Source: a virus. Taken from it: a DNA stretch of 64,000 nucleotides. The stretch is from IMG/VR virus record IMGVR_UViG_3300015202_000003, positions 85,413-149,412 of that record; one strand, given 5' to 3'. Positions 29,721 through 60,263 of this stretch are shown here, piece after piece. Within the stretch, counting starts at the first letter, position 1; every line of letters starts with the position of its first letter. A program made the position numbers and the translations under genes. Under the pieces are notes generated by a model. The model did not search any database. It had not been told where the DNA came from and worked only from the letters and a program-made list of their open reading frames with translations.

Positions 29721-29762
29721 AGACCCCCTTTTAGATTAAAAACCTAAAAGGGGGTTTTTTTT
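29721..29762 (+). terminator. Intrinsic terminator
   Basis: acccccttttag / ctaaaagggggt plus T-run. Confidence 0.8.
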
Positions 29763-29884: not shown

Positions 29885-31209
29885 ATGTTTAACTATATTC
29901 CTGTTTACAATGTTTCAGAGGAAGGTTATTGGGACAAATCCAAAGAAGAGCCTATATGGATTCAAAATCACATAGAATTGGTGAAAGAGGCTCTTAGTGT
30001 TTGGGTGGGAGATTCTATTGTTTTATATCATCATTTAGAAGATATAAAGAAAAAACAACCATTACCTTCTTCTGGCAGTGGAAAAATTGCAAGGATGAGA
30101 GCGGAGGCTTTGTTATGGGAAATTAAAAACGAGTCTAAATTAAATTCTTTTGTTTTATACAGAGGCTCTCACGAATATCCGACAGGTTTACAATCTTTTT
30201 CTTCTAATTTAAAAGTGGCTCAGAAATGGGCTGATAAAAATAATGGTTTTATTTATGTGGCCCCTAAGAAAACTGTAAGGGGTTTAAGACTGACTGATTA
30301 CGGAAAAAACACTTTTGGAGAGCGGGAATGGATAGTTGACTGTTCAACTTCAACTGAAAACTTTGATATGATTAAACCAATAAAAGAAGAACAAATTTTA
30401 ATTTTTAAAAGTTCTAATGTTCCTATAAAAGAGGGTCTACGAGTTAATTATTTATTAGAAAAGGAAGGCGATTTCCCGGACAATGCTTCTGTTCTTAAAG
30501 GAGATTTTAATTTATCTGTTATTAAAAATAGGAGGTGGATGTTTAATTCTAAGTTGAACGAGTTTGTGTTGGGCATGATTAAACCAATCATGCAGAGGAA
30601 TTTGAATATGCAAAAGCCAGAGGAAGATATGACGATTGTTTACGGGGTTGGTTTGGTTTTGGCGGAGAATATAAAAATGGGATAGTTCATTTTGCTCCTC
30701 CAATTTCTCAAGAAGAATTAAAAGATTATGATATATTTGACGGTGTTTTAAAAACGGTTCGATTTTTTTTAAAGCATGGTTGTAATCAAAAAACAATTTT
30801 AAGAGGTCTGGGTTATTATAATAATGAAGAGACAATAGAAAAAACTTTTCCTGAATTATTTAATTCTTCTATTCAAGAGGATTCAAACGAACCTGTTTTC
30901 CCCCCTACTTTAGATGAAGTTTATCGAAAAAATCTAAGAAATAAATTAAAAGGAACATTGGGTTCTTACGACTCCTCTGACGGAACTTACAACATTTATA
31001 TTCCTAAAGACAAAGTTTCAGATGCGGGGGAGGATGTAGATAAGTTACTAAAAAACATTATTGTTTCTAATTTTCTTAAAGAAGCTGAGAAACATGGTTA
31101 TAGATTAAAAGAAAAAGATTTCAACTACCCCAATTTTTCTTTAAGTTTTCAAATAGGTTCTCCGAGTGTTTTGAAACAAAGATTGACTAATAAAGTTATG
31201 GCTCGGTAA
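29885..31209 (+). CDS. ADP-ribosyltransferase-like multidomain protein with internal tag; apparent -1 frameshift near 30583
   Basis: LYRG, QSFSS, GEREW (R-S-E ART); the frame open from 30583 to 31209 joins the 30958 ORF. Confidence 0.65.
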
Positions 31210-31220
31210 GAAAATAACAT

Positions 31221-31898
31221 TTGAAAGATATAGAAAAGGGAATGATTTTAAACATTTCTCCTTTTGTTTCTCAAAACAAATTTAAATTTTTAGATAGTGT
31301 AGAAGTCGGCTTAAATCTTAAAAATTTAAAGCCGAACAATTTTGAAAAAGTAGAAGGGAGAAAAACAAAACAAGAACAAGAGTATAAATTTGATTATTCT
31401 TGTGTTTTAGTTCCTTTCTCCCCTTCTTTTAAAGAAGATTTTATTCAAGAATCTGAAAAGTTTGTCGGCCCGTTAGATTTTAGTGGCAAGGGCTTGGAAT
31501 TAGAGCCTCATTTAACACTAAAATATGGTTTAACAACAGACGATATAAGTGAAGTGAAAGATTTAGTTTGTAATTTTGGAGAATTAAATTTCACAACTCA
31601 TTTTGTTTCTTGTTTTTTTGGAGAGGAGAAAAAGAAAGATTACGATGTTTTATATTTATCTGTTTTAAATTCCTCTAAATCTTTAAATCGGTTAAATCAT
31701 TTGTTGGGTTATCTATCCAATGTAGATGAAACAGAAATTTTCACGCCTCATATAACAATTGCCTACGTTCAAAAGGGCAAAGGATATAAGTATTTAGGAA
31801 AACCTTTTTCATTAAGTTTTCAAGCTATAGTTTCTGATGAAATAATTTTTTCAGATAGGAACGGAGTTCAAAATCTAATTTCTTTAGTTCAATGTTAA
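31221..31898 (+). CDS. 2H phosphoesterase (Acb1/2'-5' RNA ligase superfamily)
   Basis: Two HxT motifs: PHLTLKYG and PHITIAY. Confidence 0.85.
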   Translation: MKDIEKGMILNISPFVSQNKFKFLDSVEVGLNLKNLKPNNFEKVEGRKTKQEQEYKFDYSCVLVPFSPSFKEDFIQESEKFVGPLDFSGKGLELEPHLTLKYGLTTDDISEVKDLVCNFGELNFTTHFVSCFFGEEKKKDYDVLYLSVLNSSKSLNRLNHLLGYLSNVDETEIFTPHITIAYVQKGKGYKYLGKPFSLSFQAIVSDEIIFSDRNGVQNLISLVQC

Positions 31899-33169
31899 TA
31901 TTTAGTCCGAAAAACATTCCTTATATTAAAGGTTTAAGAGTGTTAGAATCTAAAAAAGAAGGTTTGTTAAAAAACATTAGGGGTGAGTGGGTGGACGAGC
32001 AAAAAGCAAAAGCAGATAGGGAAAAACTATATGCCCTTTACTTGGAAATTCAGAAGAAAAAAGGAGTTAAAGTTTCAACTGTCCCTGCTTCTTACGATAA
32101 AATGTCTCTTCCTGTTCTTTCACGAACTTTGAGGGCTATGTTACATTCTTTAGAGAAAAGGAAAGAAAGTCAGGAAAAATTTTTTATACAATCTAAAGAG
32201 AAAAAAGAGGTTGAATCTGATAGTAATAAAGAGGTGGTTAAAGACCCCGAAGAAAAAGGTGGAGAAAGCGGTGGTGGGGTTAAAAAAGAGGTTGTTAATT
32301 TGGGTTTTTTAACTCCTGATAAAGAGGGTGTAGTTTTAATGCCTTTAAGTAATAAGAAACTTTTTTCTAAAAACCAGAAACCTTTTTTTGAAGAGGAGGT
32401 TAGGCAGGATGAAGATTCTTACCTTGAACATTCTAAAAAATTGGCGTCAAAAATCGTTTCTTCTTTAAAAGAAGACTTTGACGTAAAAAGTTTTGCGTTA
32501 GATTTAAAGGATTTAATAGGTTCACAAACACCTGATAGTCCTGAAGAGGTTGACCTTGAAACAACTTCTTTTCTTAAAAAACAAACTTCTTCTGTTGAAA
32601 ATGCAGGTTTGGCTTTAATTCAAGCGTGGTATAGAAGTTCAAACGGTTCTGCTTTAAGTCAAATGATGCAACAATCAGCCAAGAATGTTTTTGGTGCGGA
32701 TACAGATTCTTTTAAGCATGATACGGAGGAATTTAAATCTGGTAAGTCTGTTAAATATTTAAAAAGCAAGAAGGTTTTAGATTTCATGGCGAAGCATCAA
32801 AAAGCAGTAGACAAGATAGCGAAAGCAATGTATGAAGAAACCCAAAAACAATTGAAAGAGAAAGGAATTAAAGAGGTAACTGTTTTAAGAGGTGCGGAAG
32901 ACTACGGGAAACAACTTAGTTCTTGTATTAATGGGGGGAAAAGTATAGATTTAAACCCTTTAAGTTCTTGGACTTGTGATAAATTTATAGCAAAGGAGTT
33001 TTGTGATGATGTAGATTTCGGGAGAGGTATTATAATGAAAACCACGGTTCCGGCATCAAGAATATTTTCAACAGGTATGTCTGGAGTGGGAACATTAGGA
33101 GAAAGTGAAGTTGTTTTAATTGGCGGGAAAAATGTCGGCAAGGTGGGAAAGTATAATTTTGAGTTGTAG
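31892..33169 (+). CDS. Tag + adaptor X + C-terminal ADP-ribosyltransferase-like domain
   Basis: MLIFSPKNIPYIKGLR; VTVLRG, NPLSSWT, IAKEF, GESEVV. Confidence 0.75.
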   Translation: MLIFSPKNIPYIKGLRVLESKKEGLLKNIRGEWVDEQKAKADREKLYALYLEIQKKKGVKVSTVPASYDKMSLPVLSRTLRAMLHSLEKRKESQEKFFIQSKEKKEVESDSNKEVVKDPEEKGGESGGGVKKEVVNLGFLTPDKEGVVLMPLSNKKLFSKNQKPFFEEEVRQDEDSYLEHSKKLASKIVSSLKEDFDVKSFALDLKDLIGSQTPDSPEEVDLETTSFLKKQTSSVENAGLALIQAWYRSSNGSALSQMMQQSAKNVFGADTDSFKHDTEEFKSGKSVKYLKSKKVLDFMAKHQKAVDKIAKAMYEETQKQLKEKGIKEVTVLRGAEDYGKQLSSCINGGKSIDLNPLSSWTCDKFIAKEFCDDVDFGRGIIMKTTVPASRIFSTGMSGVGTLGESEVVLIGGKNVGKVGKYNFEL

Positions 33170-33184
33170 GTTTAATATAAAAAA

Positions 33185-33457
33185 ATGGAAAATTTTAATC
33201 CTGATAAAAAAGAAGCTGACTGGATAAAAAGTAAAGATTCAGCTATAAAATTAACCTTGCCTCAGAAAGAAACTTTAAATTACAAGAAATTATCAATTTT
33301 AATTAACACTTTTTCTGGGGAAGAAAGAGATTATGTTGATTCTTACATTAATTGTTTAAAAAAATCTGAGGATACATCTTCAATTAAAACGTCTTTGTCT
33401 CAAAACGACAGACATAAAGTTGAAAAGGCATTTAACCCTTATTTAATTTCATGTTAG
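33185..33457 (+). CDS. Small protein following the ART gene
   Basis: 90-aa ATG ORF with EADWIK motif. Confidence 0.55.
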   Translation: MENFNPDKKEADWIKSKDSAIKLTLPQKETLNYKKLSILINTFSGEERDYVDSYINCLKKSEDTSSIKTSLSQNDRHKVEKAFNPYLISC

Positions 33458-34443
33458 TTTTCAATTTTAAATCTGTCCCTGTATTAGAGGGAATTAGAAA
33501 TTCGGATTTGTTTTTATTAAATGAAGGGAAGAATGTTTTTGATTGTCGTCATATTGAACAGCCGGATGCGAAAAACTCTCGTTTTTTTAAAGGAGAATCT
33601 GTTTACGATTATATATCTCCTACAGAAGGTTTTTATTGGGATTATTATAAGGGGGACTTGATACTGTCTTCTACTTCCAATTTTTTTTATTCTTCTGAAG
33701 TGGCAGGAATTGTCCAAAAAGAAGACAGAGCTAAAATTTCTAAGTTGTGGAATAATTTGGGTGGTAAGGTTGTTTTTCAACAAAAAACTATTGTTTTTAA
33801 CAAAGATAATTACGGAAATGGTAAATTAAGACAAAAGCAAGTTTATGACATAAAAGAGTTAAAAAAGGCTTTAAAAGATTTGTTTGTTTTTGGACTTACA
33901 AAAGATTTTAAAATTAAGGGTTTGGATAGTTTTCAGGTTGGGAAAACTGTGAAAGATGCTTTATCTTTAAAAGACCCTACTGATGAAATTTTAAAATTAA
34001 ATCAAAACTTAATTTTTTATCACGGGACTTCTTTTTTACGATGGGAAGATATAAAACATGAAGGTTTAAAACCAAATCAAACAGGAGATTGTTATGCTGA
34101 TTTAATTCCTAATTATTCAGATCTCAACATTTATTTGTCTTTTTCTCCTAAAGCATCTGAGTTTTACGCCAAGAGACAGGCTAAGAAAGATGAAACCGAT
34201 GGTGTTGTTTTAAGAATAGAAGGAGTAGATACAGCTAAAATTTTAGCTGATGATGGTTCGTTATATCCTCCAGAATATTTAAATAAAACCTTTCAAGAAA
34301 TTGAAAAAATAGCTTCCTCTTCAAGAAAAATGGTTTGGTCTGGAAGAAAAAAGGGGGAGTTTGCTTATAGAGGAATAATTTTACCTTCCCACATTTCTTT
34401 GTTCAAAACAATTAAAGTTTCTTTTTCTTCTGTAATTGGGTAG
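33451..34443 (+). CDS. Tag + adaptor Y + HGT-type (H-Y-E/Tpt1-like) ART domain
   Basis: MLVFNFKSVPVLEGIR; FYHGTS..WEDIKHEGLKP, IYLS, FYA, VVLRI, AYRG.I.P..I. Confidence 0.7.
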   Translation: MLVFNFKSVPVLEGIRNSDLFLLNEGKNVFDCRHIEQPDAKNSRFFKGESVYDYISPTEGFYWDYYKGDLILSSTSNFFYSSEVAGIVQKEDRAKISKLWNNLGGKVVFQQKTIVFNKDNYGNGKLRQKQVYDIKELKKALKDLFVFGLTKDFKIKGLDSFQVGKTVKDALSLKDPTDEILKLNQNLIFYHGTSFLRWEDIKHEGLKPNQTGDCYADLIPNYSDLNIYLSFSPKASEFYAKRQAKKDETDGVVLRIEGVDTAKILADDGSLYPPEYLNKTFQEIEKIASSSRKMVWSGRKKGEFAYRGIILPSHISLFKTIKVSFSSVIG

Positions 34444-34483
34444 TTATAGTTTTTATTTAATTTTGAATAAAGGTTAAATAGAA

Positions 34484-34876
34484 ATGCAAGTATTTAATTC
34501 AAAAAACATTCCTCTTATAGAGGGCATAAGAAAACCTAAAAATTTAAATTTAGAAGAATTAAATGAATTTTTAGGTTTTGGCCCAAAAGAACCTAAGGAT
34601 TTTAAAAGTGCCAAGGGAGAGTGGATTACGCAGAAACAAGAAAAAACAGAGAGGGAAAAAATCTACGCTTTATATTTACATATAAAAAACAAAAGATTAA
34701 AACAAGTAAATAAAGATTCTGAGTTAAACTGTCAAATTCCCGATTCTTTTACGAATAAGTCTTTGCCTGAAATTTATAAAATAATTCAATCTATTCTTGT
34801 AGACATTAACAGTCACAGATCGGCTACCCAAACTCTTTTAAATTCAAAAGGTAAAGTTTCTTTTTCTACGGCTTAA
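34484..34876 (+). CDS. Tag + adaptor X only
   Basis: MQVFNSKNIPLIEGIR; KGEWIT..EREKIYALY..SLPEI. Confidence 0.7.
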   Translation: MQVFNSKNIPLIEGIRKPKNLNLEELNEFLGFGPKEPKDFKSAKGEWITQKQEKTEREKIYALYLHIKNKRLKQVNKDSELNCQIPDSFTNKSLPEIYKIIQSILVDINSHRSATQTLLNSKGKVSFSTA

Positions 34877-34883
34877 AATAAAA

Positions 34884-35870
34884 ATGACAACGGAAATAAC
34901 CCCAGAACAAATTAAAGGAAGTCCAATGGTAATTTGTGTTCCAATTGGTAAGCCTAACCCGATAGGTTATAGGGCTAATATTTTGATAGATGGTTTAAAT
35001 ATAGCTACAAAATCGGAACACAAATTAATTTTAAATTTTAACAAGTCTATTTTTGGAGATTGTTCTTCTTACACAGACCCCAGAGAATTAATATGTAAAC
35101 AGGGAGGTGTGGCAATTCAAGTTTTCGGCCCATTGGCTAATGTTACGATTCCTTCTCCGACTTCTTTTTATTTTAATTTGTTTCAAGAATGGTTTAAATG
35201 GAACAAATCTAATTTAGAAGCTACAGAAGTCACAGTTTTTATTTTAAACAAGAAAATTTATTTTAGTGTTCCCGTTTCCGAGCCAGACTGGTTTGAATAT
35301 TACAAAGAAAATAGACACTTGCAAGAATCTAATAAAAACAATAACAAAAATATTACAGTATTTAATTCTAAATCAAAACCAAATTTAAAAGGTTTACGAG
35401 AATCAAATTTAATTTGGGAGAACGGAGATTTCAACAAGTTAATTAAAACAGTGGAAGATAAGAGAGTTAAGGTTCCAACGAAAGAATCTTCAAAAAATTT
35501 AATTTCTTACACAGAAGGGTTTAATTTTTCTTATGATTTAAAATTAAAAAAACTTAATTTAGACTCTTCTCCAAAACCTTCTCCTTCTGCCGAAGATGCT
35601 TTAATTAGTGGACAAGTTAGTTTGAAAAATGAAACTTTAAAAATAAGCGAATTTATTCATAGACAACTCGCTCCTTTAAAATCAAATCAAAAAACAGGTA
35701 TAGGAACTTCTATGACAAATCAGAAGTTAATCTACGAACCTTCTGATTTAGAAACTTTTAAAAGTTTATTAAAAGCATTAGAAGAATACGGTTTAAAACC
35801 AAATTTCTCTGTAAGTGGTTTATCTCATAGTTACCCGAAAACTGTAGAACATATTTTAGAATTGGATTAG
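34884..35870 (+). CDS. Unknown N-domain + internal tag + adaptor Y
   Basis: ITVFNSKSKPNLKGLRE internal; C-half aligns with the N-domain of 33451. Confidence 0.7.
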   Translation: MTTEITPEQIKGSPMVICVPIGKPNPIGYRANILIDGLNIATKSEHKLILNFNKSIFGDCSSYTDPRELICKQGGVAIQVFGPLANVTIPSPTSFYFNLFQEWFKWNKSNLEATEVTVFILNKKIYFSVPVSEPDWFEYYKENRHLQESNKNNNKNITVFNSKSKPNLKGLRESNLIWENGDFNKLIKTVEDKRVKVPTKESSKNLISYTEGFNFSYDLKLKKLNLDSSPKPSPSAEDALISGQVSLKNETLKISEFIHRQLAPLKSNQKTGIGTSMTNQKLIYEPSDLETFKSLLKALEEYGLKPNFSVSGLSHSYPKTVEHILELD

Positions 35871-35897
35871 GGGGAATAAAAAACTAAGTTAATTTAT

Positions 35898-35937
35898 AAG
35901 AAAACTTTTAATTTTAGAATTAAAAGTTTTCTTTTTT
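35898..35937 (+). terminator. Putative intrinsic terminator
   Basis: aagaaaacttttaatt / aattaaaagttttctt plus T-run. Confidence 0.6.
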
Positions 35938-36082
35938 ATGTTTTTTAGTTAAAATTTAATTGTTATAGAGTGTTGGAAAATAAGTAAAATTTAATAAGAG
36001 TCTTCGCTCTTTTTATTTTTATAGTGGGGGAGAGTAGAAGCTAAAATAAGAAGAATCTTCGTTCTTTATATTTTTAATTCAA

Positions 36083-39000
36083 ATGCCTAAAAAAATTATT
36101 ACACCGGAAGACTCTGATTTCTTTGCAGAATCCGAAAAACAAAAAAGTGTTTTCGATGATTTTACGTTACAAGAAAGAAATTTATTTCAATCTCTTTTAA
36201 GTTCTGCTTTGAAGATAAAGGGGGTAGATAGTGAAGCTAAACAAATAAGGGAAATTGTTCCTATTGAAAAATGGTTGGAGTCAGAGTATTATCTTGGCCC
36301 TGACGGATGTAGAATTTATGATTTTTGGAAACAGTTTATAGTGGACATTTTTAACAGTCCCACTTACATCAATGAAATAATTATTGACGGGTCAATCGGC
36401 TGCTTAAAAGAAAACACCCGCGTCCCTACTTCCATCGGAAATTTAACTTTAAAAGATTTAGATTTAAAATGGAAACAAGGGGAAAGATTCCAAGTTTTGT
36501 CAGAAGAAGGTTTTAAAGATGTTTTAGCTGTTTACGACAATGGGGAGAGCGAAACTGTTAGGATAAAAACTAAGCAGGGCAGAGAAGTTGAGGGAACTCC
36601 TAATCATAAATTTAGAGTTGTTGAATTAAACGAAGAAACGCAAAGACCAGAAATTAAATGGAAACGTTTTGATGAATTAAAAGAAGGTGACATTTTCACA
36701 ATGACCCGAAAAGAAACTCCTTTTGGTTCTAATTCAATAGGAAAAGATTACGCTTATTTGTTAGGTGCAATGTCGGGAGATGGTGGTATTTGTTTATCTT
36801 CGAGAAAAAATAAAGAAGACAAGGAAAGGGTTATCCCTTGGATTTTAGTTGATCCTAAAGAAAGTAATTCTGATTATATTAGAGAAACCTTTAAGAAGGA
36901 GTTTGTTAGCTCTTATTCTACTATCAGTCGTCTTACGGAGAAGCATCAATGGCAAGAGTATATTAGAGGCCCGATTAACAGGGGGAAGTGCGAATATCTT
37001 TTATCTGAAGGATTTGGAACTTGTTCAGGTGATAAAAGAGTTCCCAATTTTATTTTCTCTTTAAATAAAATTGAAGTTGGAAGTTACCTTCGTGGATTGT
37101 TTGATACGGACGGGACAATTGGAAAAGACAATTTAAAAGAAGATGGGAGGGGTAATTATTCAATAGAATTGACATTGAAAAATAAAGAGATGATTTATGA
37201 TGTTTCTTTTCTTCTTTCAATGTTCGGTATTAATTATAAAATAACTGATAAGAAATTTAATCAAAGAAGTTCTGTAACAGGGGAGCTATTTTATGCTACT
37301 CGTCTAATTATAGTTGGGAAAGACTCTTACCGTTTATTTCATAAACATATAGGTTTTAATCTTTCTTATAAAAAAGACAGGTTAGAAGGATACGTTTCTT
37401 TACCAGTTCATAGAAACGAACGTATTAATGTTCCTTACGGCGTGGAGGAGTTAAAAATTGTTTTAGATTATAAGTCAATTAATAACCGTTCAAAAGTAAA
37501 GTCTTTGTTCGGATGGTTGTGGCAGCCTAATGTAACGTATGAAACCCTGAAAAAATTAAATGAACTATTTCCGGAGCAAATTTCTAATTCTTCTTATTTA
37601 ACTTGGATTTTAAAACACGATTGTTTTTTTGATGCCGTTGTTTCTGTTGAAAAAAGTTTTTGTTATTGTAGAGATTTAACAGTTAGAGAGTCACATACTT
37701 ACTCTTTTCAAAATTTTCAGGGAAAAAATACAGGTAAGTCCAGTGTTTCGGATTTTATTGTTTTAAGAAAATTGTATGAGCTAAGTTGCTACACAAATAT
37801 CCAAGCTAAATTTAATTTGATGAGGTCAAAACTCATTATGTTTTTTTATTTTTCTGTAACTAAATCACAGGCAGAAATTACGGGTTATGGAAGTTTAAAA
37901 AATTTAGTTGACAGCATTGAATATTTTGAAAAAGAGTTTCCTCGAAATAAAAGATTTGATAAATGGTTGCTTTGGCCTCAAGAGAACATTGCTATTATGT
38001 ATGGTTCAAATTCAGATCACTGCATAGGCCTCAGTCTTCTTTTGTCCGTCATGGACGAAGCAAACTTCATGGGCAGAGAAGGCGATTTTGAACGGTCTTC
38101 TAACGGTCAACTGTCTAAAGCATCTAATTTATATGAAAAAACACGTCAACGCGCCCAGTCTCGTTTCTCTCCCAATGGTTTTGACCAGTCTTTTTCTCTT
38201 TTAGTTTCTTCTTCTACTCACGAAAGCTCTTTTACGGAAGAAAGAAAAAGAAAAAGTTTGGGTAAGAGCAACATTCTTTCGGTTACGGCTCGTTTGTGGG
38301 ATGTTAAGCCTAAAGATTATCCTAAACCTAAATTTTGGGTGTGTGTTGGTAATCATTTAATAGACCCTTTTATTTGCGATACAATTTCTGACCTGAATCA
38401 ATTTCTACAATCTTGTCAAGTTTCTTCTTTACCTTTAGAAGCAGATTTAAATTGGCAGGTGGAAAATAATCCAGATGTAGCGCCTTACAGGTCTTTATTT
38501 CAACACATACCGGGAGATTTTAGAGATAGGTTTGAATCTAATATTGTTTCTTCTCTCCAAAATATAGCTGGTGTTTCAGTTGCTCCGATTGGAAAATTGT
38601 TTACGGCGCGTCCTATTTTAGTAAAGGCTTATCAACATGGTGAAAGTTTAAATTTGGAACATCCTTTTACTAAAAGTGAAATTGTAATTTCGACTCACGA
38701 TGATGTTAGGTTAGAACATTTTTGGAGACAGGATTTCGAGTTTAAAAATATATCGGCACCTCGTTACATACATATAGATCAAAGCTTTGGGTCTTCTGAC
38801 AATAACGGCGACTGCGGCGGAATTTCGCAGGTTTACATTGACAGGTTTGAAGAGAAAAACGGTCTTTTAAAACCTGTTTTTTGTGTGGATTATATGCTTC
38901 AAATTAACCCTCCAAGACTGCCTCAAAAACTTTCTATTTCAAAAGTAAGAGATTTTGTTTTTTGGTTACAAGACAACAAAAATATAAATTTTGGATTCAT

Positions 39001-40681
39001 TTCTTATGACGGCGCGGGTTCTGCGGAATCTCTTCAAACTATTTCAGAGAGGGGAATACCTTGTAAGTTGTTATCTGTTGATAGAAGCGATGATGCGTAT
39101 ACTTCTCTTGTGAACATAATTTTCGAGGAAAGGCTTTACTCTTATTTTTACGAGCCTTTTGAAAATAACTTTTTAAATTTAATACACGACAGAGCCAACA
39201 GAAAAGTAGATCATCCAAAAAGTTGTTTTGTTGCCGACACAAAAATAAAATTGTTAGACGGCACATATCCAACAATTAAAGAGTTGTCTGATAGAACATT
39301 AGAAGACCCCAACTATGAATTTTGGGTTTATTCTTCTCTGCCAGATGGAACACCCGTTCCCGGAAAAGCACGTCGCGCTCGATTAACTTCATTAAACCGA
39401 GAAATAGTTGAAGTCAAATTGGACAACGGCGAAACAATCAGATGCACTCCTGACCACAGGTTTCTTCTACGAAACGGAGAGTATAGAGAAGCTGAGTTTT
39501 TAACAACGGGAGATTCTTTAATGCCTTTGTATTGGGCTTTTAAGAGTCGTTTGAAAAAAAGAGAGTGTGAAAAAGAAGACGGATATGAAAGAATAAAAAA
39601 TAATAAAACAGGTCAGTGGTGTTTAACTCATTCTTGGGTCAGTCGGTTTTTTGATTTTGGCGTGGTGTGGAAAAGTGGTAACGTTATACATCACGTTGAT
39701 TATAACAAGAAGAACAATATTCCCGAAAATTTACAGCTATTAACTAACAGCGAACACATGAAAATTCATGCTCTTTCTGAAGCTATAGCTAAAATGAAAA
39801 TTTCTCTTAAAAAGTATTTTGAGGAAAACCCAAGCTCTGCTAAAGAAAGAAGGAAGGGCTATGTTCCTCAACATCTGATTGATTTTTTGAAAACGGAAGA
39901 AGGGATAAATCAGTCCGGAAAAAAAATCGAAAAAGTGAACGAAGTTTATTGGAAATCTGAAGAAGGTGTTTTAAAAAGAAATCAGATTCGTAAAGAGCTT
40001 ACTGAAAAGGGCTATACAGAAGTCCTTGAGAAAAACAATTTAAAATTTGAACATACTCAAAAAGAAAAATCAAAGCCCTGTTTGGACTATGTTCTTTGTT
40101 CTGGTCATGCGAAGTATTTACTTGGGGGCAGAAAAAGTTCGTGGGTTAGAAGGTTTGAACAGTGGGACATAAACCTTCAAGAAAACTATAAACGAGTGAA
40201 AGAATTATCCGAAAATTCAATAGAGGAAGCTGTTGAGAAAACGGGTTTGAAAGATGTAAGGCATTTAAAAATCTATCTCAACAAATGTAAAAACACACAC
40301 AATCACAAAGTAATTTCTGTTAAATTTTTAGGGGAGAAAGAAGATGTTTACGACATAGAAGTTCCTGAATATCACAACTTCGCATTAGCATCGGGGATTT
40401 TCGTTCACAATAGTAAAAAAGATGTGAGTGATTCTCTGGCGGGGGCTATTTATTCTGCTATTAAAAACTCTTCTAATTCCAACATTCAAAGATACGATCC
40501 TAATTTATTAATTTTATCTAACAATAATTCAGAAGAAGATGAAGACAGTAGTTATAAAGATTTCGGTTTCAATTTAAATTCAAGTAATCCACAGATTCAA
40601 GTATTAAATAAAAGTTCGGATGCGTTTGATTTATTTGAGGATAAAGGAGAAGAGGGTTCCGGGGTTTCAATTTTCTTTTAA
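36083..40681 (+). CDS. terL: Terminase large subunit with two inteins (mature ~693 aa)
   Basis: Walker A GSIG/TGKS, Walker B VMDEAN, coupling motif VSSS, nuclease HIDQS, ISYD, KVDHP..KDVSD. Confidence 0.92.
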   Translation: MPKKIITPEDSDFFAESEKQKSVFDDFTLQERNLFQSLLSSALKIKGVDSEAKQIREIVPIEKWLESEYYLGPDGCRIYDFWKQFIVDIFNSPTYINEIIIDGSIGCLKENTRVPTSIGNLTLKDLDLKWKQGERFQVLSEEGFKDVLAVYDNGESETVRIKTKQGREVEGTPNHKFRVVELNEETQRPEIKWKRFDELKEGDIFTMTRKETPFGSNSIGKDYAYLLGAMSGDGGICLSSRKNKEDKERVIPWILVDPKESNSDYIRETFKKEFVSSYSTISRLTEKHQWQEYIRGPINRGKCEYLLSEGFGTCSGDKRVPNFIFSLNKIEVGSYLRGLFDTDGTIGKDNLKEDGRGNYSIELTLKNKEMIYDVSFLLSMFGINYKITDKKFNQRSSVTGELFYATRLIIVGKDSYRLFHKHIGFNLSYKKDRLEGYVSLPVHRNERINVPYGVEELKIVLDYKSINNRSKVKSLFGWLWQPNVTYETLKKLNELFPEQISNSSYLTWILKHDCFFDAVVSVEKSFCYCRDLTVRESHTYSFQNFQGKNTGKSSVSDFIVLRKLYELSCYTNIQAKFNLMRSKLIMFFYFSVTKSQAEITGYGSLKNLVDSIEYFEKEFPRNKRFDKWLLWPQENIAIMYGSNSDHCIGLSLLLSVMDEANFMGREGDFERSSNGQLSKASNLYEKTRQRAQSRFSPNGFDQSFSLLVSSSTHESSFTEERKRKSLGKSNILSVTARLWDVKPKDYPKPKFWVCVGNHLIDPFICDTISDLNQFLQSCQVSSLPLEADLNWQVENNPDVAPYRSLFQHIPGDFRDRFESNIVSSLQNIAGVSVAPIGKLFTARPILVKAYQHGESLNLEHPFTKSEIVISTHDDVRLEHFWRQDFEFKNISAPRYIHIDQSFGSSDNNGDCGGISQVYIDRFEEKNGLLKPVFCVDYMLQINPPRLPQKLSISKVRDFVFWLQDNKNINFGFISYDGAGSAESLQTISERGIPCKLLSVDRSDDAYTSLVNIIFEERLYSYFYEPFENNFLNLIHDRANRKVDHPKSCFVADTKIKLLDGTYPTIKELSDRTLEDPNYEFWVYSSLPDGTPVPGKARRARLTSLNREIVEVKLDNGETIRCTPDHRFLLRNGEYREAEFLTTGDSLMPLYWAFKSRLKKRECEKEDGYERIKNNKTGQWCLTHSWVSRFFDFGVVWKSGNVIHHVDYNKKNNIPENLQLLTNSEHMKIHALSEAIAKMKISLKKYFEENPSSAKERRKGYVPQHLIDFLKTEEGINQSGKKIEKVNEVYWKSEEGVLKRNQIRKELTEKGYTEVLEKNNLKFEHTQKEKSKPCLDYVLCSGHAKYLLGGRKSSWVRRFEQWDINLQENYKRVKELSENSIEEAVEKTGLKDVRHLKIYLNKCKNTHNHKVISVKFLGEKEDVYDIEVPEYHNFALASGIFVHNSKKDVSDSLAGAIYSAIKNSSNSNIQRYDPNLLILSNNNSEEDEDSSYKDFGFNLNSSNPQIQVLNKSSDAFDLFEDKGEEGSGVSIFF
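36401..37729 (+). mobile_element. Intein 1 in TerL (within Walker A), LAGLIDADG (443 aa)
   Basis: CLKENT..., GTPNHKF, YLLGAMSGDG, YLRGLFDTDG, ends GKN|T. Confidence 0.9.
39224..40411 (+). mobile_element. Intein 2 in TerL nuclease domain, HNH (396 aa)
   Basis: CFVADT..., CTPDH, IHHVDYNKKNN.PENL, ends FVHN|S. Confidence 0.9.
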
Positions 40682-40728
40682 CTTTTATTTTTTATTTACA
40701 CCTCTTTTTCTTTTCTTAATTTTCTTTT

Positions 40729-41775
40729 ATGTCTCGTTTTATTTTTTCTTCTTCTAACACTCCTGAAGATATAGGGGGTATTAGAGTTTTTTTAAAGGAG
40801 CAGTCGGGAGAAAAATGTAAAAATACAAGGGGAGAGTGGGTAGATAGAAAAGATGCTGATAGGGAAAGAAAAGTTCTTTACGATATTTGGAGAAAATTAA
40901 ATCCTAACAAGTCTATACCTCCTTCTTTAAATTTAGTCTCTCTTCCTGAATTAAAAGAGATGTTATCTGAAGAAATTAAAAAAAGAAAAGAAGATAAGTT
41001 ACCAAAAAGCAATCAAAAGATTTCAACGGAAAAAGACAAGCAAATCGAAAAAGAATCTGAAAAAGAGATTGATTTAGATTTAGAGAAGAGTGAGAAGAAA
41101 AAACCTAAAGAAAAAAAAGAAACTGAAATAGAATCTAAGGAACAAAATAAAAAACATATTGATAGTGGTGAGAAAAAAGAAAGTTCAGAAGATGAGTCGG
41201 AAGAAGACATAACAGATAAACCTAAAAAACCGAATGAAGTTATTAATCCTAATTTAACGGAGGATTCTTTTCCTTTAGATTTAAGTAAGAATCCTGAAAA
41301 GAAAAAAGAGGTTGAAAAAACAACTCATAATTATTTCGATGATTCGGGTTCTTCTTCTAAGATGTTAGATTTTACGAAATCTTTAAATTTAGGTCCTATA
41401 GTTTCAACGGTAGCAACCTCAGCCGCAGAAGTTGGGTTGGGGGTTTATTTTATTGCTTTATTGGCGGCTTGTCCTTTTGGTGGGGTGGGAATTTCTTTAA
41501 TTTTGGGCATGACTTTAGGTTTGTATGGTTTATTTGAAGAAGCCGGAACAAAGCCGATTAGAGTTTCTTTAAAAGATGATAAGAGAATTACATCAAATTT
41601 AAAAGAGTTGTCTAAAATTAAAATTGTAAATCAAATTCCCAACGATAAAAATTTAAAAAGTTTAATTGCGGTTGCGGTCAAAGTTAAAATGGATTACGAT
41701 TTAAAATGGAGTCTGAGAGAGTGGGGCGATAATTTTATTAAATTTTTTCATCCTGATAAGGATAGAGTAAAATAG
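40729..41775 (+). CDS. Tag + adaptor X + charged linker + hydrophobic helical hairpin
   Basis: MSRFIFSSSNTPEDIGGIR; RGEWVD; VGLGVYFIALLAACPFGGVGISLILGMTLGLYGLF. Confidence 0.7.
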   Translation: MSRFIFSSSNTPEDIGGIRVFLKEQSGEKCKNTRGEWVDRKDADRERKVLYDIWRKLNPNKSIPPSLNLVSLPELKEMLSEEIKKRKEDKLPKSNQKISTEKDKQIEKESEKEIDLDLEKSEKKKPKEKKETEIESKEQNKKHIDSGEKKESSEDESEEDITDKPKKPNEVINPNLTEDSFPLDLSKNPEKKKEVEKTTHNYFDDSGSSSKMLDFTKSLNLGPIVSTVATSAAEVGLGVYFIALLAACPFGGVGISLILGMTLGLYGLFEEAGTKPIRVSLKDDKRITSNLKELSKIKIVNQIPNDKNLKSLIAVAVKVKMDYDLKWSLREWGDNFIKFFHPDKDRVK

Positions 41776-41823
41776 TAGATTTAAAATAGTAGATTTAAAA
41801 CAGTAAAGATAAAGTAATTACGA

Positions 41824-42417
41824 ATGTCAAACAGATTTTTAATTTTTCAGGATGGAAACTTTCAAGTTTCTTCTTTTCCTTTCGCTTCTTCTATTTTAGT
41901 AGAAGATATAAACAGAAACATTTCAACAGTTTTAATTGGAAAAGAATCACAACAATTTTTAAAAGATTTTAGCGGTCTAATTCCAAAAGAAAAGAGTTCT
42001 CTTTGTGAGGATGTTTCTAAAGATTCCCGGTCAAAATCAAAATACGGAAATTTAACTTCCGATTTAGATGGGGTTTACGATGAAATGTTAAAATTAGGAT
42101 TTGACAAAAAACCTAATTTTAATTTAAATTTTACAACTTCAGAGCAAAGTGTTCCGACAGTTTCGTTGTTATTTTACAATGATCCTAAACAAAACAGAGA
42201 GAACGTATTGCCTAATGTAACTTTAAGTTTTTCGGAATTAAATTCTAAAACCAAGGCTTTGTTATATGTGAATGGGGGGGATAAAAATACAAACTATATA
42301 AAGTTTGTTTCTAAGAAAGTAAGTCTACAATCGGTTGCTTTGGATTTTTCTTTGACTGAATTTGTTTCTCTTTTAAAAGAAATTTCAACCTTTTCAAAAA
42401 CGGAGTTATCGGATTAG
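41824..42417 (+). CDS. Hypothetical protein in head cluster
   Basis: ATG ORF, begins MSNRFLIF. Confidence 0.6.
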   Translation: MSNRFLIFQDGNFQVSSFPFASSILVEDINRNISTVLIGKESQQFLKDFSGLIPKEKSSLCEDVSKDSRSKSKYGNLTSDLDGVYDEMLKLGFDKKPNFNLNFTTSEQSVPTVSLLFYNDPKQNRENVLPNVTLSFSELNSKTKALLYVNGGDKNTNYIKFVSKKVSLQSVALDFSLTEFVSLLKEISTFSKTELSD

Positions 42418-42462
42418 ATTTGAAAATATATCTTATACAGCTAAACAAACCATAGAATTTTA

Positions 42463-43770
42463 ATGTCTGTTTTAATTTTCAGTTCAAAGAATGTTCCTTT
42501 AGTAGAAGGAATTAGAGAATCTCCGTTAGAAATTTTAGACGAAGATATGGCGGAGTTTTCTTATAATGCTTTGCATCCGAAAAGTAGAAAAGTAAAAGAC
42601 ATCCAAGGAAAATGGGTTGATTCCAAAACGGGCGAACAGAAGAGACAAGAAATCTACGCTTTTTATTTAAAATATCTTCGTTCAAAAGGTTATGAGGATA
42701 AAAAAGTTCCTCCTTGTTTTGATGATATGAGTTTGCCTCAAATAGACAAGTTTATTAAAAAAGTTTTTGCGGGAGATGAAGAAAACAAACAGAAAAAATC
42801 TTTGAACACTGTTCAAAGAATTGGTTTAAAAGCTTATCAAGCGGGTTCCGAAATAGCATCTGGAAAGATACCTTTTAGTCCTGCAGAAGAAGAGGGCGAA
42901 GAAGAGGATGAGGAAAAGGAGGGGAAAGGTAAAGAAGAAAATCCAACTGAATTAACTCCTGAGCAAGTTAAAGAACATCATAAAATTTTAGAAGACGTTG
43001 AAAAACAAAGTCATTCTAAAGTCAGCGAAAGTCTTGGAAAGATATGGGAGTTTTTATCGGAGCAAGGAAAAGATTTTACGAAAGAGGTAAAAAGAGATGT
43101 AGTTTCTACTGCTGTAGAATTAAATCCAATTTATCATGGAGAAATTGGTTCGGTAGATGGTTCAACGGATGCTTCTCATTCCGAAGTAGGGACGGATACA
43201 ACACATACTTCTGTTGACGACTTAACTTCTGCTTCTTCCGAAGAGGAGGCTGTTTCAACGGAAAAATCATCGTCTCATCATCATTATCATGGTTTACATC
43301 CAAACAGACCTTTAGAAGATCAAATTGAAAGGAGTTGTAAAGCTTCGGCTTCTGTTTCTAACAAAGAAAAAATAATACGTTTAGCGAAAGGGGGTTTAAC
43401 GTGTGTTGCGGCTTATTACTTGTTTTCCAGTGGGGGTGTAGGGGCGGACGCTTTAATAGAACACGCTAAAACTTTAGTTCCTCATTTAGAGAATGTTTCT
43501 CCTATTTTAGCACACGGTTTAGATTCTTGTTTGGAAGTAGCTAATCATATTACGGAAGTTGTAAGTGATGTTGGAAAAGATGCTGCCCAACACGTCATGT
43601 CTCCTGAGAATTTTTCTTCAAATCCGCGTCGTTCTATGCGTAATGCAGTTAAAAGAGTTGGGGAAATTGCGGCTTCAAAGCATCCTATTTTAACTACTGC
43701 TGTGGGGGTTGTAAAGGGAACTTTAAATTCTTTGTCTCCTTGGGCGAATCTTACTGCGGGAGGTGCATAA
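42463..43770 (+). CDS. Tag + adaptor X + acidic/His-rich region + hydrophobic C-terminal domain (copy A)
   Basis: MSVLIFSSKNVPLVEGIR; QGKWVD; paralog of 44112. Confidence 0.7.
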   Translation: MSVLIFSSKNVPLVEGIRESPLEILDEDMAEFSYNALHPKSRKVKDIQGKWVDSKTGEQKRQEIYAFYLKYLRSKGYEDKKVPPCFDDMSLPQIDKFIKKVFAGDEENKQKKSLNTVQRIGLKAYQAGSEIASGKIPFSPAEEEGEEEDEEKEGKGKEENPTELTPEQVKEHHKILEDVEKQSHSKVSESLGKIWEFLSEQGKDFTKEVKRDVVSTAVELNPIYHGEIGSVDGSTDASHSEVGTDTTHTSVDDLTSASSEEEAVSTEKSSSHHHYHGLHPNRPLEDQIERSCKASASVSNKEKIIRLAKGGLTCVAAYYLFSSGGVGADALIEHAKTLVPHLENVSPILAHGLDSCLEVANHITEVVSDVGKDAAQHVMSPENFSSNPRRSMRNAVKRVGEIAASKHPILTTAVGVVKGTLNSLSPWANLTAGGA

Positions 43771-43772
43771 AA

Positions 43773-44093
43773 ATGTTAAAAAATAAATTTTCGATTGTAG
43801 AGTCTGTTAAAAATTCCAACTTTTCTTCCAAACCTTCTATTGTAGATTATTCAATTGCTCAGTTGGAGGGAGAGAAACGGGCATTTGAAGAAGCTGGAAG
43901 TAAGATTCCAAGTGCTTACGAAATGATAGAATTAAATGCAATGGCCCAAGTTTTAGGGTTTAAGCCTTCTCCGAAATGGACGGGTATGGATTGGGGGAAA
44001 GCAATAGGAGAAGGAATAGAAAATTCTAAAATGTCTATGGATGTTATTATTAAAAAAGTTACAACTCTTTTAAAAACCCAAGTTAAAAAATAG
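43773..44093 (+). CDS. Small partner protein (copy B)
   Basis: MLKNKFSIVE..KPSIVDYSIAQLEGEK; paralog of 45513. Confidence 0.7.
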   Translation: MLKNKFSIVESVKNSNFSSKPSIVDYSIAQLEGEKRAFEEAGSKIPSAYEMIELNAMAQVLGFKPSPKWTGMDWGKAIGEGIENSKMSMDVIIKKVTTLLKTQVKK

Positions 44094-44111
44094 AAAAAAT
44101 AAAATTTCACT

Positions 44112-45488
44112 ATGTCTGTTTTAATTTTCAGTTCTAAAAATGTTCCTCTTACGGAGGGCATTAGAAAATCAAATTCTCTTTTAATTTTAAATGAGTTTGG
44201 TTTTGCTGAATCTAAGCACGCGGTAAAGGATGTGAAGGGAAAATGGATTGATTCTCAACACGCCCAACAAGAGAGACAAAAAGTTTATTCAATTTATTTA
44301 CAGGCGGCTCGAAAAAAACAAGATTTGGCGGATGTTAAGAGTAACAAACAGATTGTGACTCCGCCTTGTTTTGACAAAATGAGTTTGCCTCAGATTAGTC
44401 ATTACATTCATACTTTTATAGATTCAAAAGAAGAAGCAAAACCTAAAAAAGAAACTTTGGGGGACAAAGCAAAACATTTAGCAGCAACCGTAGCTTTGGC
44501 AGCAACTTTAGCCCCTCACAAAATTGTAAGCGGGGAATATGAAGGAGAAGGAGAAGAGGGAAACAAAAAAGAGGAGGAAGAACCCGAACCTTCTCCTGAT
44601 TTAACACCTGAACAGTTGGTAGAACATCATAAATTAGTAGGGAAATCACATAAATTTGGTTATGACAAGGTAAAAAAAGAATTTGGTAGTTTGAAAAAAC
44701 TTTTAAAAAACGTAGTTCGCGCTCAGCTTTCGGATGCTATTTCTACGTCAATAGAAAGTTCGAGAAGTTTGCAGAGTGTTGAACAAGGAGGGGGTCATGC
44801 AGAGGGAGGGGCTGCAAATTTACCTTCTGCAGAGGGGGGTTCTGAAGGTGGTGGAGAAGCGTTGGCATCATCTTCTGTAGAAAGTTCCGCACACGTTGGA
44901 GTCGAGGCTTCGACTGATTTTGTTCATTCTACGGAAGATTCTTTCAGAGAAGAAGACGGCAAATTAAAATCACATACTACAAAAAATTATTTACACGCTT
45001 TACATCCATTAGCTCCTTTAGAGAGACATACCAGAGAACTTTGTAGCGTTGTTAAAGAGCGCGGTTTAAGTAAAACCGCTCAAAATTTAATGGTTGGAGG
45101 TGCTACGGCTTTAGTGGGCGCTTTATTATTTGCACATGGATGTTCAGAAGCAACTGTTTTAATAGATTATGCAAAAGAAATGATACCTCATTTGCATGCT
45201 TTACCTCCTATGGTAGCTCATGCTGCTACGGGCGGTTTAGAACACGTCGCTAAATTTACGGATCATTTGAAAGAGGCATCAGGAGAAGTCGGGAAAAATT
45301 TTCTAAGTCCGGAACATTGGGCTGAAAGTCCGAAACGTTCAGCTCGTTTATTAATACAAAGATTTACAGAAATAGCTAAAGCTAAAGATTTTAAAGAAGT
45401 AGTAAAAACGTCTACTGTTGGGGCTATAAAAGGAACTGTAAAAAACTTTGTAGCGGGGAGTAGTTCTTCTTTTGATGGTTTTGGTTAA
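44112..45488 (+). CDS. Tag + adaptor X + hydrophobic C-terminal domain (copy A')
   Basis: MSVLIFSSKNVPLTEGIR; KGKWID; PPCFDKMSLPQI. Confidence 0.7.
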   Translation: MSVLIFSSKNVPLTEGIRKSNSLLILNEFGFAESKHAVKDVKGKWIDSQHAQQERQKVYSIYLQAARKKQDLADVKSNKQIVTPPCFDKMSLPQISHYIHTFIDSKEEAKPKKETLGDKAKHLAATVALAATLAPHKIVSGEYEGEGEEGNKKEEEEPEPSPDLTPEQLVEHHKLVGKSHKFGYDKVKKEFGSLKKLLKNVVRAQLSDAISTSIESSRSLQSVEQGGGHAEGGAANLPSAEGGSEGGGEALASSSVESSAHVGVEASTDFVHSTEDSFREEDGKLKSHTTKNYLHALHPLAPLERHTRELCSVVKERGLSKTAQNLMVGGATALVGALLFAHGCSEATVLIDYAKEMIPHLHALPPMVAHAATGGLEHVAKFTDHLKEASGEVGKNFLSPEHWAESPKRSARLLIQRFTEIAKAKDFKEVVKTSTVGAIKGTVKNFVAGSSSSFDGFG

Positions 45489-45512: not shown

Positions 45513-45836
45513 ATGTTAAAAAATAAATTTTCAATTAAAGAAGCTGTTAGCAACAACAATAATAAAACACAGAGTAAAAAGCCTTCTGTGTTAGACTATT
45601 CGATTGCTCAGTTGGAGGGAGAAAAAAAAGCTTATTTAGAAGAGGGAAAAGCGATGCCAACTTCTGTTCAATTAGAAGAGTTAAATGCTTTTGCTAAAGT
45701 TTTTAATATAAAGCCTTTAGCACATTGGACAATGATGGATTGGGGCAATGTTTTAGCTAAAGAGTTGGACAATACAAAATTAACATCTGACCAAATTTTA
45801 AAGAAAGTCAATGATATATTAAAGTCTCAGAGTTAG
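45513..45836 (+). CDS. Small partner protein (copy B')
   Basis: MLKNKFSIKE..KPSVLDYSIAQLEGEK. Confidence 0.7.
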   Translation: MLKNKFSIKEAVSNNNNKTQSKKPSVLDYSIAQLEGEKKAYLEEGKAMPTSVQLEELNAFAKVFNIKPLAHWTMMDWGNVLAKELDNTKLTSDQILKKVNDILKSQS

Positions 45837-46818: not shown

Positions 46819-46859
46819 AAAACCCTTTTAGAATATAAATCTAAAAGGGTTTATTTTTT
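46819..46859 (+). terminator. Intrinsic terminator
   Basis: aaacccttttaga / tctaaaagggttt plus T-rich tract. Confidence 0.7.
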
Positions 46860-46930: not shown

Positions 46931-49420
46931 ATGAAAATTTTTGGCATTAGTTTATTTGAGAAGAACAACAATCTTTCTAATAATTTTACGAATCAGCATC
47001 AACAACAAATAGAAGTCAAATCGGACATTCCTGATTTTGACGATATAAATGATTCTAACTCTTTGTGGACTTTAGTTTCTGGGGCTAAAATTATTTCTGA
47101 GGTTCGTTCTGCTAAATTGAGGCAGTTTAAAACGATGGGTTATCATACGACTATCAATTCTGCATTAGAAATGATGTCTGAGGATGCGACACAATTAAAT
47201 CAGGAAAACAGAAAAATATTTTGGGTAACATCGGAAACACCTGAAATAGAAGAGCATTTAAATGATTTTTTAACTGACCAAGTAAGAATCCAAGAGCGTT
47301 TATTTCTATGGGCTTATCGAATTGCCAGAGACGGAGAATGTTATTTAAAAACTTATTTTACGGAAAGGGAAAACGCTAACAAATTAAAAGAAGATCATTT
47401 TACTAAAATAGAAAAGATAAATTCTCTTAACGAATCAAATTTCCAAGAGAGAAAATTAAAACAGGAATTAATTAAAAAATCTGTTTTAACGATAGAAGAA
47501 AAAAGAAGTCTGGAAGTATTAGATGATGATGAATATTATGAAGAAGTTCAAGATTCCAGTAAAGTTTCAAACTTAACTTTATATGGAAAAACTTCTGCTT
47601 TTTTGTTTATAGAAAACGATGGGAATAGTGTTATTTTCAAACCTCAAGATTACATACATTTTGTTTCTGATAGAAACATGAACCGAGAAGATGTTGAAAT
47701 TGAATTTACGAATAATGACAAGACAAAAGAAAAAAGAAAATTTTTAATTAAATATGGAACTTCTTTTTTGGAGGGTGTAGTTCAGGATTACAATGTAATT
47801 GAATTGTTAGAAAACGTTTTAGTAGTTTCTCGTTTAAGCCGTTCTCAGTTGTTTAGATTATTTTTAATTAATGTAGGGGCTTCTTCTAACATAGAGGCTC
47901 TTAAAATGGTAAGGGATTTTAAAAATTCTATTAAAAACAGAGAGTCGGTAGATGTTAAATCGGGAAAATATGTAAACACTTCTTCTCCTCTTCCAATTTC
48001 AGATAATATCTTTATTCCTACCCGCCAAGGTAAGGGAGATGTAAGTGTTCAGGATATTGGGGGAAATGTAGATGTTAAATCTATCGTAGATTTTGATTTT
48101 TTTTGGAGTAAATTTTGTGGTGCCCTGCGCGTGCCAAAGGCATACTTATGTCTAAGAGGAAACACAAAAGTATCTCTTTTAGATGGAACAACACCTACAT
48201 TGGCAGAAATGAGCGAAAACTCTTCTTATTACGTTGGAAGGTCAATTCTTACTTGTGATGCTACAGGAGAGATTAAACCAACAACTATTACTCATGTTCA
48301 CAAGACACGTTTAAACGCTTCTTTTGTTAGAGTTACTTTAGACAACAATGAATTTGTAGACTTTACGCCAGATCATTTATTTCAAATGAGAGACGGTAGT
48401 TTTAAAGAAGCAGGTAAATTGTTGCCCGACGATTCTTTAATGCCTTTTTATACGAGAGTATGTGAGAAAGGATATTCTTGTGTAAAAAGAAACAATAAAT
48501 CTGGAGGTTGGGTTCCTATACATCGTTTAATGGCAAAAAGCGGTTTTTTGGGAGAAATGCCGAAAGGCTACGTTGTTCATCACAAAGATAAAAATAAGTT
48601 AAACAATGACGCATCTAATTTGGAAGTAATGTCTCGTTACGACTATTATAAAAAACACAGTGAAGAACATATAAAAAATCGTTTAGCCTCTTTTCTAAAA
48701 AGTAGGGCTGAAAAGTTTTCAAAATCTTATTCCTCTGTTGAGGATGAAAATTTTAACAGCCATAAAGTTCTTAAAGTTGAATTTTTAAATGTTGTAGAAG
48801 ATGCTTATGATTTAGGAGTAGACGACGATTCTCATACTTTTCCTTTAGCTTGCGGTATTTTTGTTCACAACTCTTTTGATGATGCAATCGGAGGACAGTA
48901 TTCCAACACATCTTTGACAAGACTTGATATAAGATATGCCAGAACGGTTAAAAGAATAGTGGTTGCATTACAAGTTGGGATTGAAAAAATAATTGACAAT
49001 CATTTAGAGACAATTAAAAAAGAAGATTGGAAAGGAAAATATAAAGTGGTATCTACCCCGGTATCCGATGCAGAAGAATCCGATAGACTTCAAGACTTAC
49101 AAACTAAAATAGAATTTTGCTCTACTTTAGGAAGTGTTTTAACTTCTGTAGAGGGTGTTTATTCTCCTTTAGAACAAAAGGCTATTTTACGAAGTTTCAT
49201 TAAAGATAAAGTTGGAATAGATGTAGAAAAAGTTCTTGCTGCTTATTTAGAATTACACCCCGAAGAAGAAGAAGTTCCCGTTCCTGCCGAAGATGGACAA
49301 GAACAAGACCCTAACCAAGAAGCTGCCCCTGAAGATGGAGAACAACAAGAACCAAAAACTAATTCAACAACAAAAGAGCCTTCTCTGGAAGATTTATCTT
49401 CTCAGTTGGACGCCCTCTAA
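46931..49420 (+). CDS. Portal protein (T4 gp20-like) with one intein (mature ~588 aa)
   Basis: INSALEMMSEDA, IARDG, YGTSFLE, LENVLVVSRLSRS, IFIPTR.GKG, ALRVPKAYL, DIRYARTV.RI. Confidence 0.9.
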   Translation: MKIFGISLFEKNNNLSNNFTNQHQQQIEVKSDIPDFDDINDSNSLWTLVSGAKIISEVRSAKLRQFKTMGYHTTINSALEMMSEDATQLNQENRKIFWVTSETPEIEEHLNDFLTDQVRIQERLFLWAYRIARDGECYLKTYFTERENANKLKEDHFTKIEKINSLNESNFQERKLKQELIKKSVLTIEEKRSLEVLDDDEYYEEVQDSSKVSNLTLYGKTSAFLFIENDGNSVIFKPQDYIHFVSDRNMNREDVEIEFTNNDKTKEKRKFLIKYGTSFLEGVVQDYNVIELLENVLVVSRLSRSQLFRLFLINVGASSNIEALKMVRDFKNSIKNRESVDVKSGKYVNTSSPLPISDNIFIPTRQGKGDVSVQDIGGNVDVKSIVDFDFFWSKFCGALRVPKAYLCLRGNTKVSLLDGTTPTLAEMSENSSYYVGRSILTCDATGEIKPTTITHVHKTRLNASFVRVTLDNNEFVDFTPDHLFQMRDGSFKEAGKLLPDDSLMPFYTRVCEKGYSCVKRNNKSGGWVPIHRLMAKSGFLGEMPKGYVVHHKDKNKLNNDASNLEVMSRYDYYKKHSEEHIKNRLASFLKSRAEKFSKSYSSVEDENFNSHKVLKVEFLNVVEDAYDLGVDDDSHTFPLACGIFVHNSFDDAIGGQYSNTSLTRLDIRYARTVKRIVVALQVGIEKIIDNHLETIKKEDWKGKYKVVSTPVSDAEESDRLQDLQTKIEFCSTLGSVLTSVEGVYSPLEQKAILRSFIKDKVGIDVEKVLAAYLELHPEEEEVPVPAEDGQEQDPNQEAAPEDGEQQEPKTNSTTKEPSLEDLSSQLDAL
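48149..48871 (+). mobile_element. Intein in portal, HNH (241 aa)
   Basis: CLRGNT..., FTPDH, VHHKDKNKLNN..NL, ends FVHN|S. Confidence 0.9.
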
Positions 49421-53327: not shown

Positions 53328-53353
53328 GATTTAATTTTAGCTCCTAAAACACA

Positions 53354-58378: not shown

Positions 58379-58399
58379 AGGGGGGGGTAGGGTTTGTAA

Positions 58400-58448
58400 A
58401 AAGAGGAAGTTGAAATCTTGTTTAATTTCAAATTTCAACTTCCTCTTT
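58400..58448 (+). terminator. Hairpin / putative terminator
   Basis: aaagaggaagttgaaat / atttcaacttcctcttt. Confidence 0.55.
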
Positions 58449-58462
58449 ATTAAAAATAAAAA

Positions 58463-60257: not shown

Positions 60258-60263
60258 AAAATT

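Follow-up and report, generated by a model that had tools for sequence, protein, structure and literature searches.

What is the role of a short peptide that recurs, joined to unrelated domains, in eight proteins encoded beside the terminase and portal genes of a phage? The peptide, a 16-residue tag, is carried by open reading frames (ORFs) A to H (Table 1) of an uncultured glacier-ice phage represented by the 198,095-base IMG/VR record IMGVR_UViG_3300015202_000003, of which the window analyzed here is a 64,000-nucleotide part (positions 85,413 to 149,412). Judged by capsid protein, the cultured phages closest to it are LIS04, SP-15, and HSE3 (39-42% identity). An earlier note on this DNA took the tag for a signal unlike that of T4, borne by a modular and polymorphic set of head-packaged effectors. 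The reading favored here, with a probability of about 0.65, is that head-packaged cargo is marked by the tag together with the site that follows it, the two forming an extended capsid-targeting propeptide specific to this lineage.

The tag and the sites behind it

All eight copies claimed by the earlier note were found, within positions 29885-45488; six are N-terminal (ORFs B, C, D, F, G, and H) and two are internal (ORFs A and E). In leave-one-out scoring with a position-specific scoring matrix, the seven ungapped copies reach 24-41 bits against a best background of ~12 over 126,649 positions in the six frames of the complete genome, and the copy of ORF F, one residue longer than the others, scores ~21 bits after removal of that residue. 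A hidden Markov model (HMM) of the eight copies detects each at E<=4e-6 with no other match below E 1.5, a result that is circular in that the model was built from the copies it detects. The expected concentration in the head-gene neighborhood was borne out across the genome: the terminase-portal block contains all eight tags, and the remaining ~235 predicted genes have none. Selection appears to act on the peptide rather than on the DNA, because synonymous choice is close to random: of 179 same-residue codons, 95 are identical across tags, whereas codon usage alone would give 84. Residual DNA identity between tags is still visible. A DNA-level element or promoter was considered and rejected on the strength of these synonymous sites and of a sigma-70 scan at chance level.

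The tags are accompanied by motifs resembling the sites of T4-type prohead proteases. In T4, internal proteins are loaded by a 10-residue capsid-targeting sequence (CTS), which gp21 removes by cleaving behind L/I-X-E (PMC9026906); the CTSs of IPI, IPII, IPIII, and Alt are credited there to Mullaney and Black (1996). Five of the eight tags end in L/I/V-x-E with Gly behind the Glu, and a second L/I/V-x-E lies at most 14 residues behind the tag in all eight (21% of background windows; p ~0.002 for four independent lineages, a post hoc value, since the pattern, with Val allowed, was picked after inspection). The protease-scaffold protein of this phage itself contains 15 L/I/V-x-E motifs, and the capsid protein has an invariant Glu68 within an L/V-x-E motif that resembles a propeptide site. 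Among head-region genes, 6 of 37 have a short leader, two of these being tagged genes, compared with 10 of 208 genes in the rest of the genome (Fisher p 0.02). The untagged head-region genes with such a leader are the two small genes behind ORFs G and H, the protease gene, and the gene of an 1149-aa protein.

Homologues of ORF C give the strongest evidence on what the tag is. Four proteins from other phages match it at 38-45% identity over nearly the whole length, domain Y and the ADP-ribosyltransferase (ART) part together, and none is tagged. Each has instead an 8-9-residue leader ending in a Glu. Because this leader Glu aligns with the invariant Glu25 of ORF C, the tag is, on this alignment, a 16-residue prefix set before a retained ancestral T4-type L/I/V-x-E leader. 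The description of the tag as unlike that of T4 thus stands for the first ~12 residues, beyond which a T4-type site is retained. One of the homologues belongs to a run of three short-leader genes that stands head-to-head with the genes for the protease, the scaffold, and the capsid protein.

The search in related phages that the earlier note proposed gave untagged homologues of ORF C, one homologue of domain X with no clear tag, and no second genome with the tag. ORF D alone as a query found only itself, and a tag-plus-X alignment gave no match to viral and metagenome contigs. A degenerate DNA pattern of the tag had nine viral matches, all in unrelated or interrupted frames, and none in metagenomes. 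No X match was found in 13 other phage records and no tag at the fetched homologue loci; no paper describing this tag was found in a literature search. A profile of X run against 1.84 billion representatives matched only the five proteins of this phage and one protein (P0006; E 1e-9) of a sister phage, from a sample that also holds a capsid protein 69% identical to that of this phage. Elsewhere, X is a small stand-alone protein: P0006, encoded behind the neck gene, carries several L/I/V-x-E motifs ahead of its X domain. The P0006 frame (L003:601-669) is open for 23 codons upstream of the called start, with no ATG, and resembles the short leaders of the small genes behind ORFs G and H; the true start may be non-standard. 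The in-frame stretch upstream is weakly tag-like; in a post hoc comparison, its score was reached by 52 of 2000 shuffles, and it is not counted as a tag for that reason.

Domains joined to the tag

Domain X, which the earlier note had placed behind five tags, was confirmed there by blastp (E 1e-15 to 3e-6) and by alignment. It spans ~70 residues and is well modeled as a β-hairpin and two helices, whereas the tag is modeled poorly. Fold comparison gave no clear match (best Z score 5.6), and neither Foldseek nor an ESM Atlas search at 0.9 gave any match; a HeH/Rho-N-like DNA-binding motif considered for X was not borne out. Domain Y is common to ORFs C and E only (E 2e-7), and not to three proteins as had been proposed: the Y profile detects nothing in ORF A in any frame, and a profile-profile comparison of Y with the domain found there, Z, is at shuffle level, and Z and Y may still be remote homologues. 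An adaptor role for X and Y is unsupported, because Y belongs to a conserved protein that lacks the tag in other phages and X gave no partner or fold match. The set is polymorphic and swappable in the sense of paralogous mosaicism inside this one genome only.

The ART-like domains named in the earlier note are supported, with differing strength of evidence. ORF B matches the Pfam DRAT family (PF07357) at 31 bits against a cut-off of 25 and has the Arg, Ser, and E-x-E motifs; its ART part is 35% identical to Bacillus phage HSE3 gp023, itself untagged. ORF A shows R-S-E-type motifs by eye, has no Pfam match, and weakly matches only ORF B and HSE3 gp023, so its assignment as an R-S-E ART is less sure than that of ORF B. 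ORF C has H-Y-type motifs (His-Gly-Thr and Tyr, with His191 and Tyr228 invariant) and weak Tpt1/PARP Pfam matches under the cut-off. Tpt1, PARP, and toxin ART folds rank highest for a low-confidence model (predicted local distance difference test score 44; best E 0.046).

The remaining tagged proteins carry other cargo. The predicted hydrophobic hairpin is clear in ORF F (KD19 hydrophobicity 2.25) and weaker in ORFs H (1.71) and G (1.27), and alignment of the ORF F hairpin with the G and H segments gave no match. ORFs G and H are paralogues, 32% identical over their full length, and each with its small neighbor forms one unit of a tandem duplication. No phage homologues of the C-terminal part of G and H or of the N-terminal part of E were found.

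ORF A is interrupted. Its domain Z has 43% identity (E 6e-19) to a 129-aa protein that stands alone in Bacteroidales mobile elements. This protein is encoded in one open frame and matches positions 30521-30574 in the first frame of ORF A and 30583-30810 in the second. Because this homologue is continuous across the break, ORF A is taken to carry a third domain, Z, and to be frameshifted between 30574 and 30583; the protein was read through the shift with an X residue at the break. Codon usage also shifts to the other frame near 30600. A Logan contig of the probable source run, an ice metagenome, has the same bases at this point, so that a mutation or a programmed shift is suggested rather than a one-off assembly slip; the contig is not independent of the record, and rare variants are dropped from it. 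An assembly error is thus not supported. Positions 30574-30583 resemble a slippery site only loosely. The Z homologues (L013:2740-3126; L015-L023:3001-3387) are Pfam-less, stand-alone proteins of 129 aa, mostly in Bacteroidales genomes, and in L013 the gene lies near ssb-, parA/parB-, and helicase-like genes. Such a neighborhood is a typical place of early-transferred anti-defense genes.

Possible roles of the tag

In the proposed mechanism, an extended capsid-targeting propeptide of ~25-33 residues would begin with the tag, which late in infection would bring the eight proteins into the prohead core. The S77 protease would then cleave at the L/I/V-x-E sites, both those within the tag and those closely following it, on the far side of the Glu. 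With the propeptide lost, the cargo (ART-like enzymes, membrane-hairpin proteins, X, Y, and Z) would remain in the head until it is ejected along with the DNA. In ORFs A and E, the tag would lie inside a polyprotein, flanked by L/I/V-x-E sites, with an N-terminal domain that rides along and is then cut free; the L/I-x-E just upstream of both internal tags fits polyproteins cut apart in the head. The claim of head-packaged cargo receives indirect support from gene context, from protease-site-like motifs, and from homologues with T4-type leaders beside head genes. About 44% of phage ARTs occur in head-packaging contexts, and ARTs and 2H domains near terminase and portal genes are a described context of this kind (PMC9503650).

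The resemblance to the T4 CTS includes a short leader common to unrelated proteins, L/I-x-E at its end, an ART among the cargo, and a genome that encodes a T4-type portal, an S77 (gp21-type) protease, and Gp23. In contrast to T4, the leader here opens with a conserved 16-residue prefix that has no sequence relation to the 10-residue CTS. Two of the copies lie inside proteins, X is an additional domain in five proteins, and the system is read from gene sequences. It is set apart from the T4 CTS system proper because its leader is neither short nor strictly N-terminal. Giant phages similar to phiKZ and SPN3US share longer propeptides, redundant x-x-E sites, proposed prohead targeting, and paralogous head families (PMC7411985, PMC9026906); however, theirs is a different lineage with propeptides of 111-130 residues (PMC7411985) cut at S/A-x-E, and no sequence match tested positive. 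MuF-fused and polyvalent effectors (PMC9503650, PMC5512222) likewise join a common head module to varied effectors, often ART or 2H, near terminase and portal genes, but the shared part here is a short peptide with small domains, and no MuF match was found in Pfam or PHROGs. Among the closest cultured phages, HSE3 has a related ART domain in gp023, whereas LIS04, HSE3, and a 221,908-bp record (putative SP-15, a Thornevirus) gave no tag or X match.

Several observations weigh against an extended propeptide. Three of the eight tags lack Glu at the first site, L/I/V-x-E is short and common, and T4 is the assumed model for where this protease cleaves. The tags of ORFs A and E are internal, whereas the T4 CTS is N-terminal. 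The searches gave the tag in this one genome only, although blank searches do not prove its absence in unsampled kin, and the other homologues of ORF C (L006, L008-L010) lie away from head genes in mixed neighborhoods. Part of the set may be decaying, as the frameshift of ORF A suggests. Finally, this phage and its close relatives are known from genes alone, and binding to the core, cleavage, packaging, ejection, and enzyme activity are predictions.

It is possible, if rather doubtful, that the cargo is loaded by the short T4-type element behind the tag alone and that the prefix serves as a second address, an oligomerization strand, or a timing or chaperone signal. The short leader does stand alone in the homologues and in untagged head-region genes of the same genome, and the prefix is under protein-level selection; a longer propeptide, as in SPN3US, is nevertheless the simpler explanation, and a separate role for the prefix is conjecture. 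A two-tier addressing system in one head, with the prefix as a second, position-independent address atop the T4-type leader that directs a cargo subset (the ARTs and the membrane-hairpin proteins F, G, and H, joined via X) to a portal-proximal ejection assembly, seems improbable. Paralogous expansion of non-virion late proteins, in which the shared N terminus is a duplication or recombination relic that provides a translation start, is likewise given little weight. The plain tandem duplication of G and H with their small neighbors, the visible DNA identity of the tags, the lack of Shine-Dalgarno motifs in the tagged genes, and the broken ORF A would all fit such a relic, yet amino acids are kept while synonymous sites approach saturation, the two internal copies keep the reading frame, the tag is joined to unrelated domains, and the homologue context points to the head. 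Very unlikely is a recognition signal for a phage AAA+/peptidase/vWA machine (54317-61982), or for another chaperone or protease, in place of the prohead core. A large AAA gene with partner genes is found between portal and protease, and the ORF C homologues of one jumbo-phage lineage (L006; 440 kb) are flanked by DUF2201 (vWA/peptidase) and a MoxR-like AAA gene, but these homologues are untagged, two other homologue loci have no AAA neighbors, and the Glu-site pattern fits a prohead protease.

The general principle has precedents in T4 and in giant phages. What binds the T4 CTS, and by which rules head cargo is loaded, is poorly defined. Particular to this phage, as judged from the alignments, is that a prefix can be seen to have been added to an old leader, together with two internal copies and the presence of short and long leaders in one genome. 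The same Y-ART protein with an 8-9-residue leader elsewhere and with prefix and old site here offers a natural comparison that could separate the addressing part of a leader from the part that is cut; it also predicts a cleavage rule and a cargo list for an unstudied, SP-15-related lineage. The two internal copies, if functional, bear on whether a loading signal must be N-terminal.

Gene neighborhood

Table 1. Features of the tagged cluster and neighboring head genes (window coordinates)
Feature	Coordinates	Strand	Remarks
Terminator-like hairpin before cluster	29723..29755	.	same-family hairpin 46820-46852 behind cluster
ORF A, 266 aa as it stands	29885..30685	+	N-terminal R-S-E-type ART-like domain, internal tag, start of domain Z, frame lost
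Internal tag of A	30395..30442	+	I-K-E (residues 166-168) before, L-L-E after
Domain Z and C-terminal part of A	30521..31209	+	continues in frame 30583-31209
2H phosphoesterase, untagged, inside cluster	31221..31898	+	PF13563 above cut-off
ORF B	31892..33169	+	tag, X, acidic linker, DRAT-like R-S-E ART (residues 229-413)
ORF C	33451..34443	+	tag, putative retained ancestral site Glu25, Y, H-Y-type ART-like domain
ORF D, 130 aa	34484..34876	+	tag and X only
ORF E	34884..35870	+	N-terminal domain without assignment, L-Q-E148, internal tag (35352-35399), Y
Probable terminase large subunit with two inteins, 1532 aa	36083..40681	+	Pfam: intein, LAGLIDADG, HNH families only
ORF F	40729..41775	+	tag (one residue longer), X, charged linker, hydrophobic hairpin (~residues 221-270)
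ORF G	42463..43770	+	tag, X, low-complexity linkers, Gly/Ala-rich C-terminal domain
Small gene after G	43773..44093	+	short leader ending I-V-E before S; paralogue of 45513
ORF H	44112..45488	+	tag, X, linkers, Gly/Ala-rich C-terminal domain
Small gene after H	45513..45836	+	short leader ending I-K-E before A
T4-like portal with intein	46931..49420	+	PF07230 E 3e-42
S77 prohead protease with a fused scaffold-like coiled coil that has many L/I/V-x-E motifs	62142..63782	+	PF03420 above cut-off
Gp23-type capsid gene	from 63805, after protease-scaffold		PF07068

The gene at 36083 is probably terL, as suggested by a Walker-A-like motif that the first intein interrupts and by gene order in LIS04 and HSE3. 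The two hairpins that bracket the cluster belong to one sequence family, with two further copies upstream of the window. The 2H phosphoesterase has a ~55-residue N-terminal extension, a weak Acb1 match (E 0.038), and an overlap with the start of ORF B, and the untagged genes 41824-42417 and 45919-46746 have a ~50-residue segment in common (E 2e-5). Shine-Dalgarno-like words occur upstream of only 40 of the 245 predicted genes of the whole genome (11% at random); this rarity suggests a host that does not rely on them.

Beyond the portal, an adjacent paralogous gene pair with near-identical C termini (52323-54283) precedes the AAA gene, and the interval before the protease encodes a 1353-aa AAA protein, an HExxH-type protein, and a vWA-like protein. 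At L001:7106-12171, proteins of 511 and 1149 aa encoded behind the neck gene contain many L/I/V-x-E-S/G motifs and are candidate head polyproteins without the tag.

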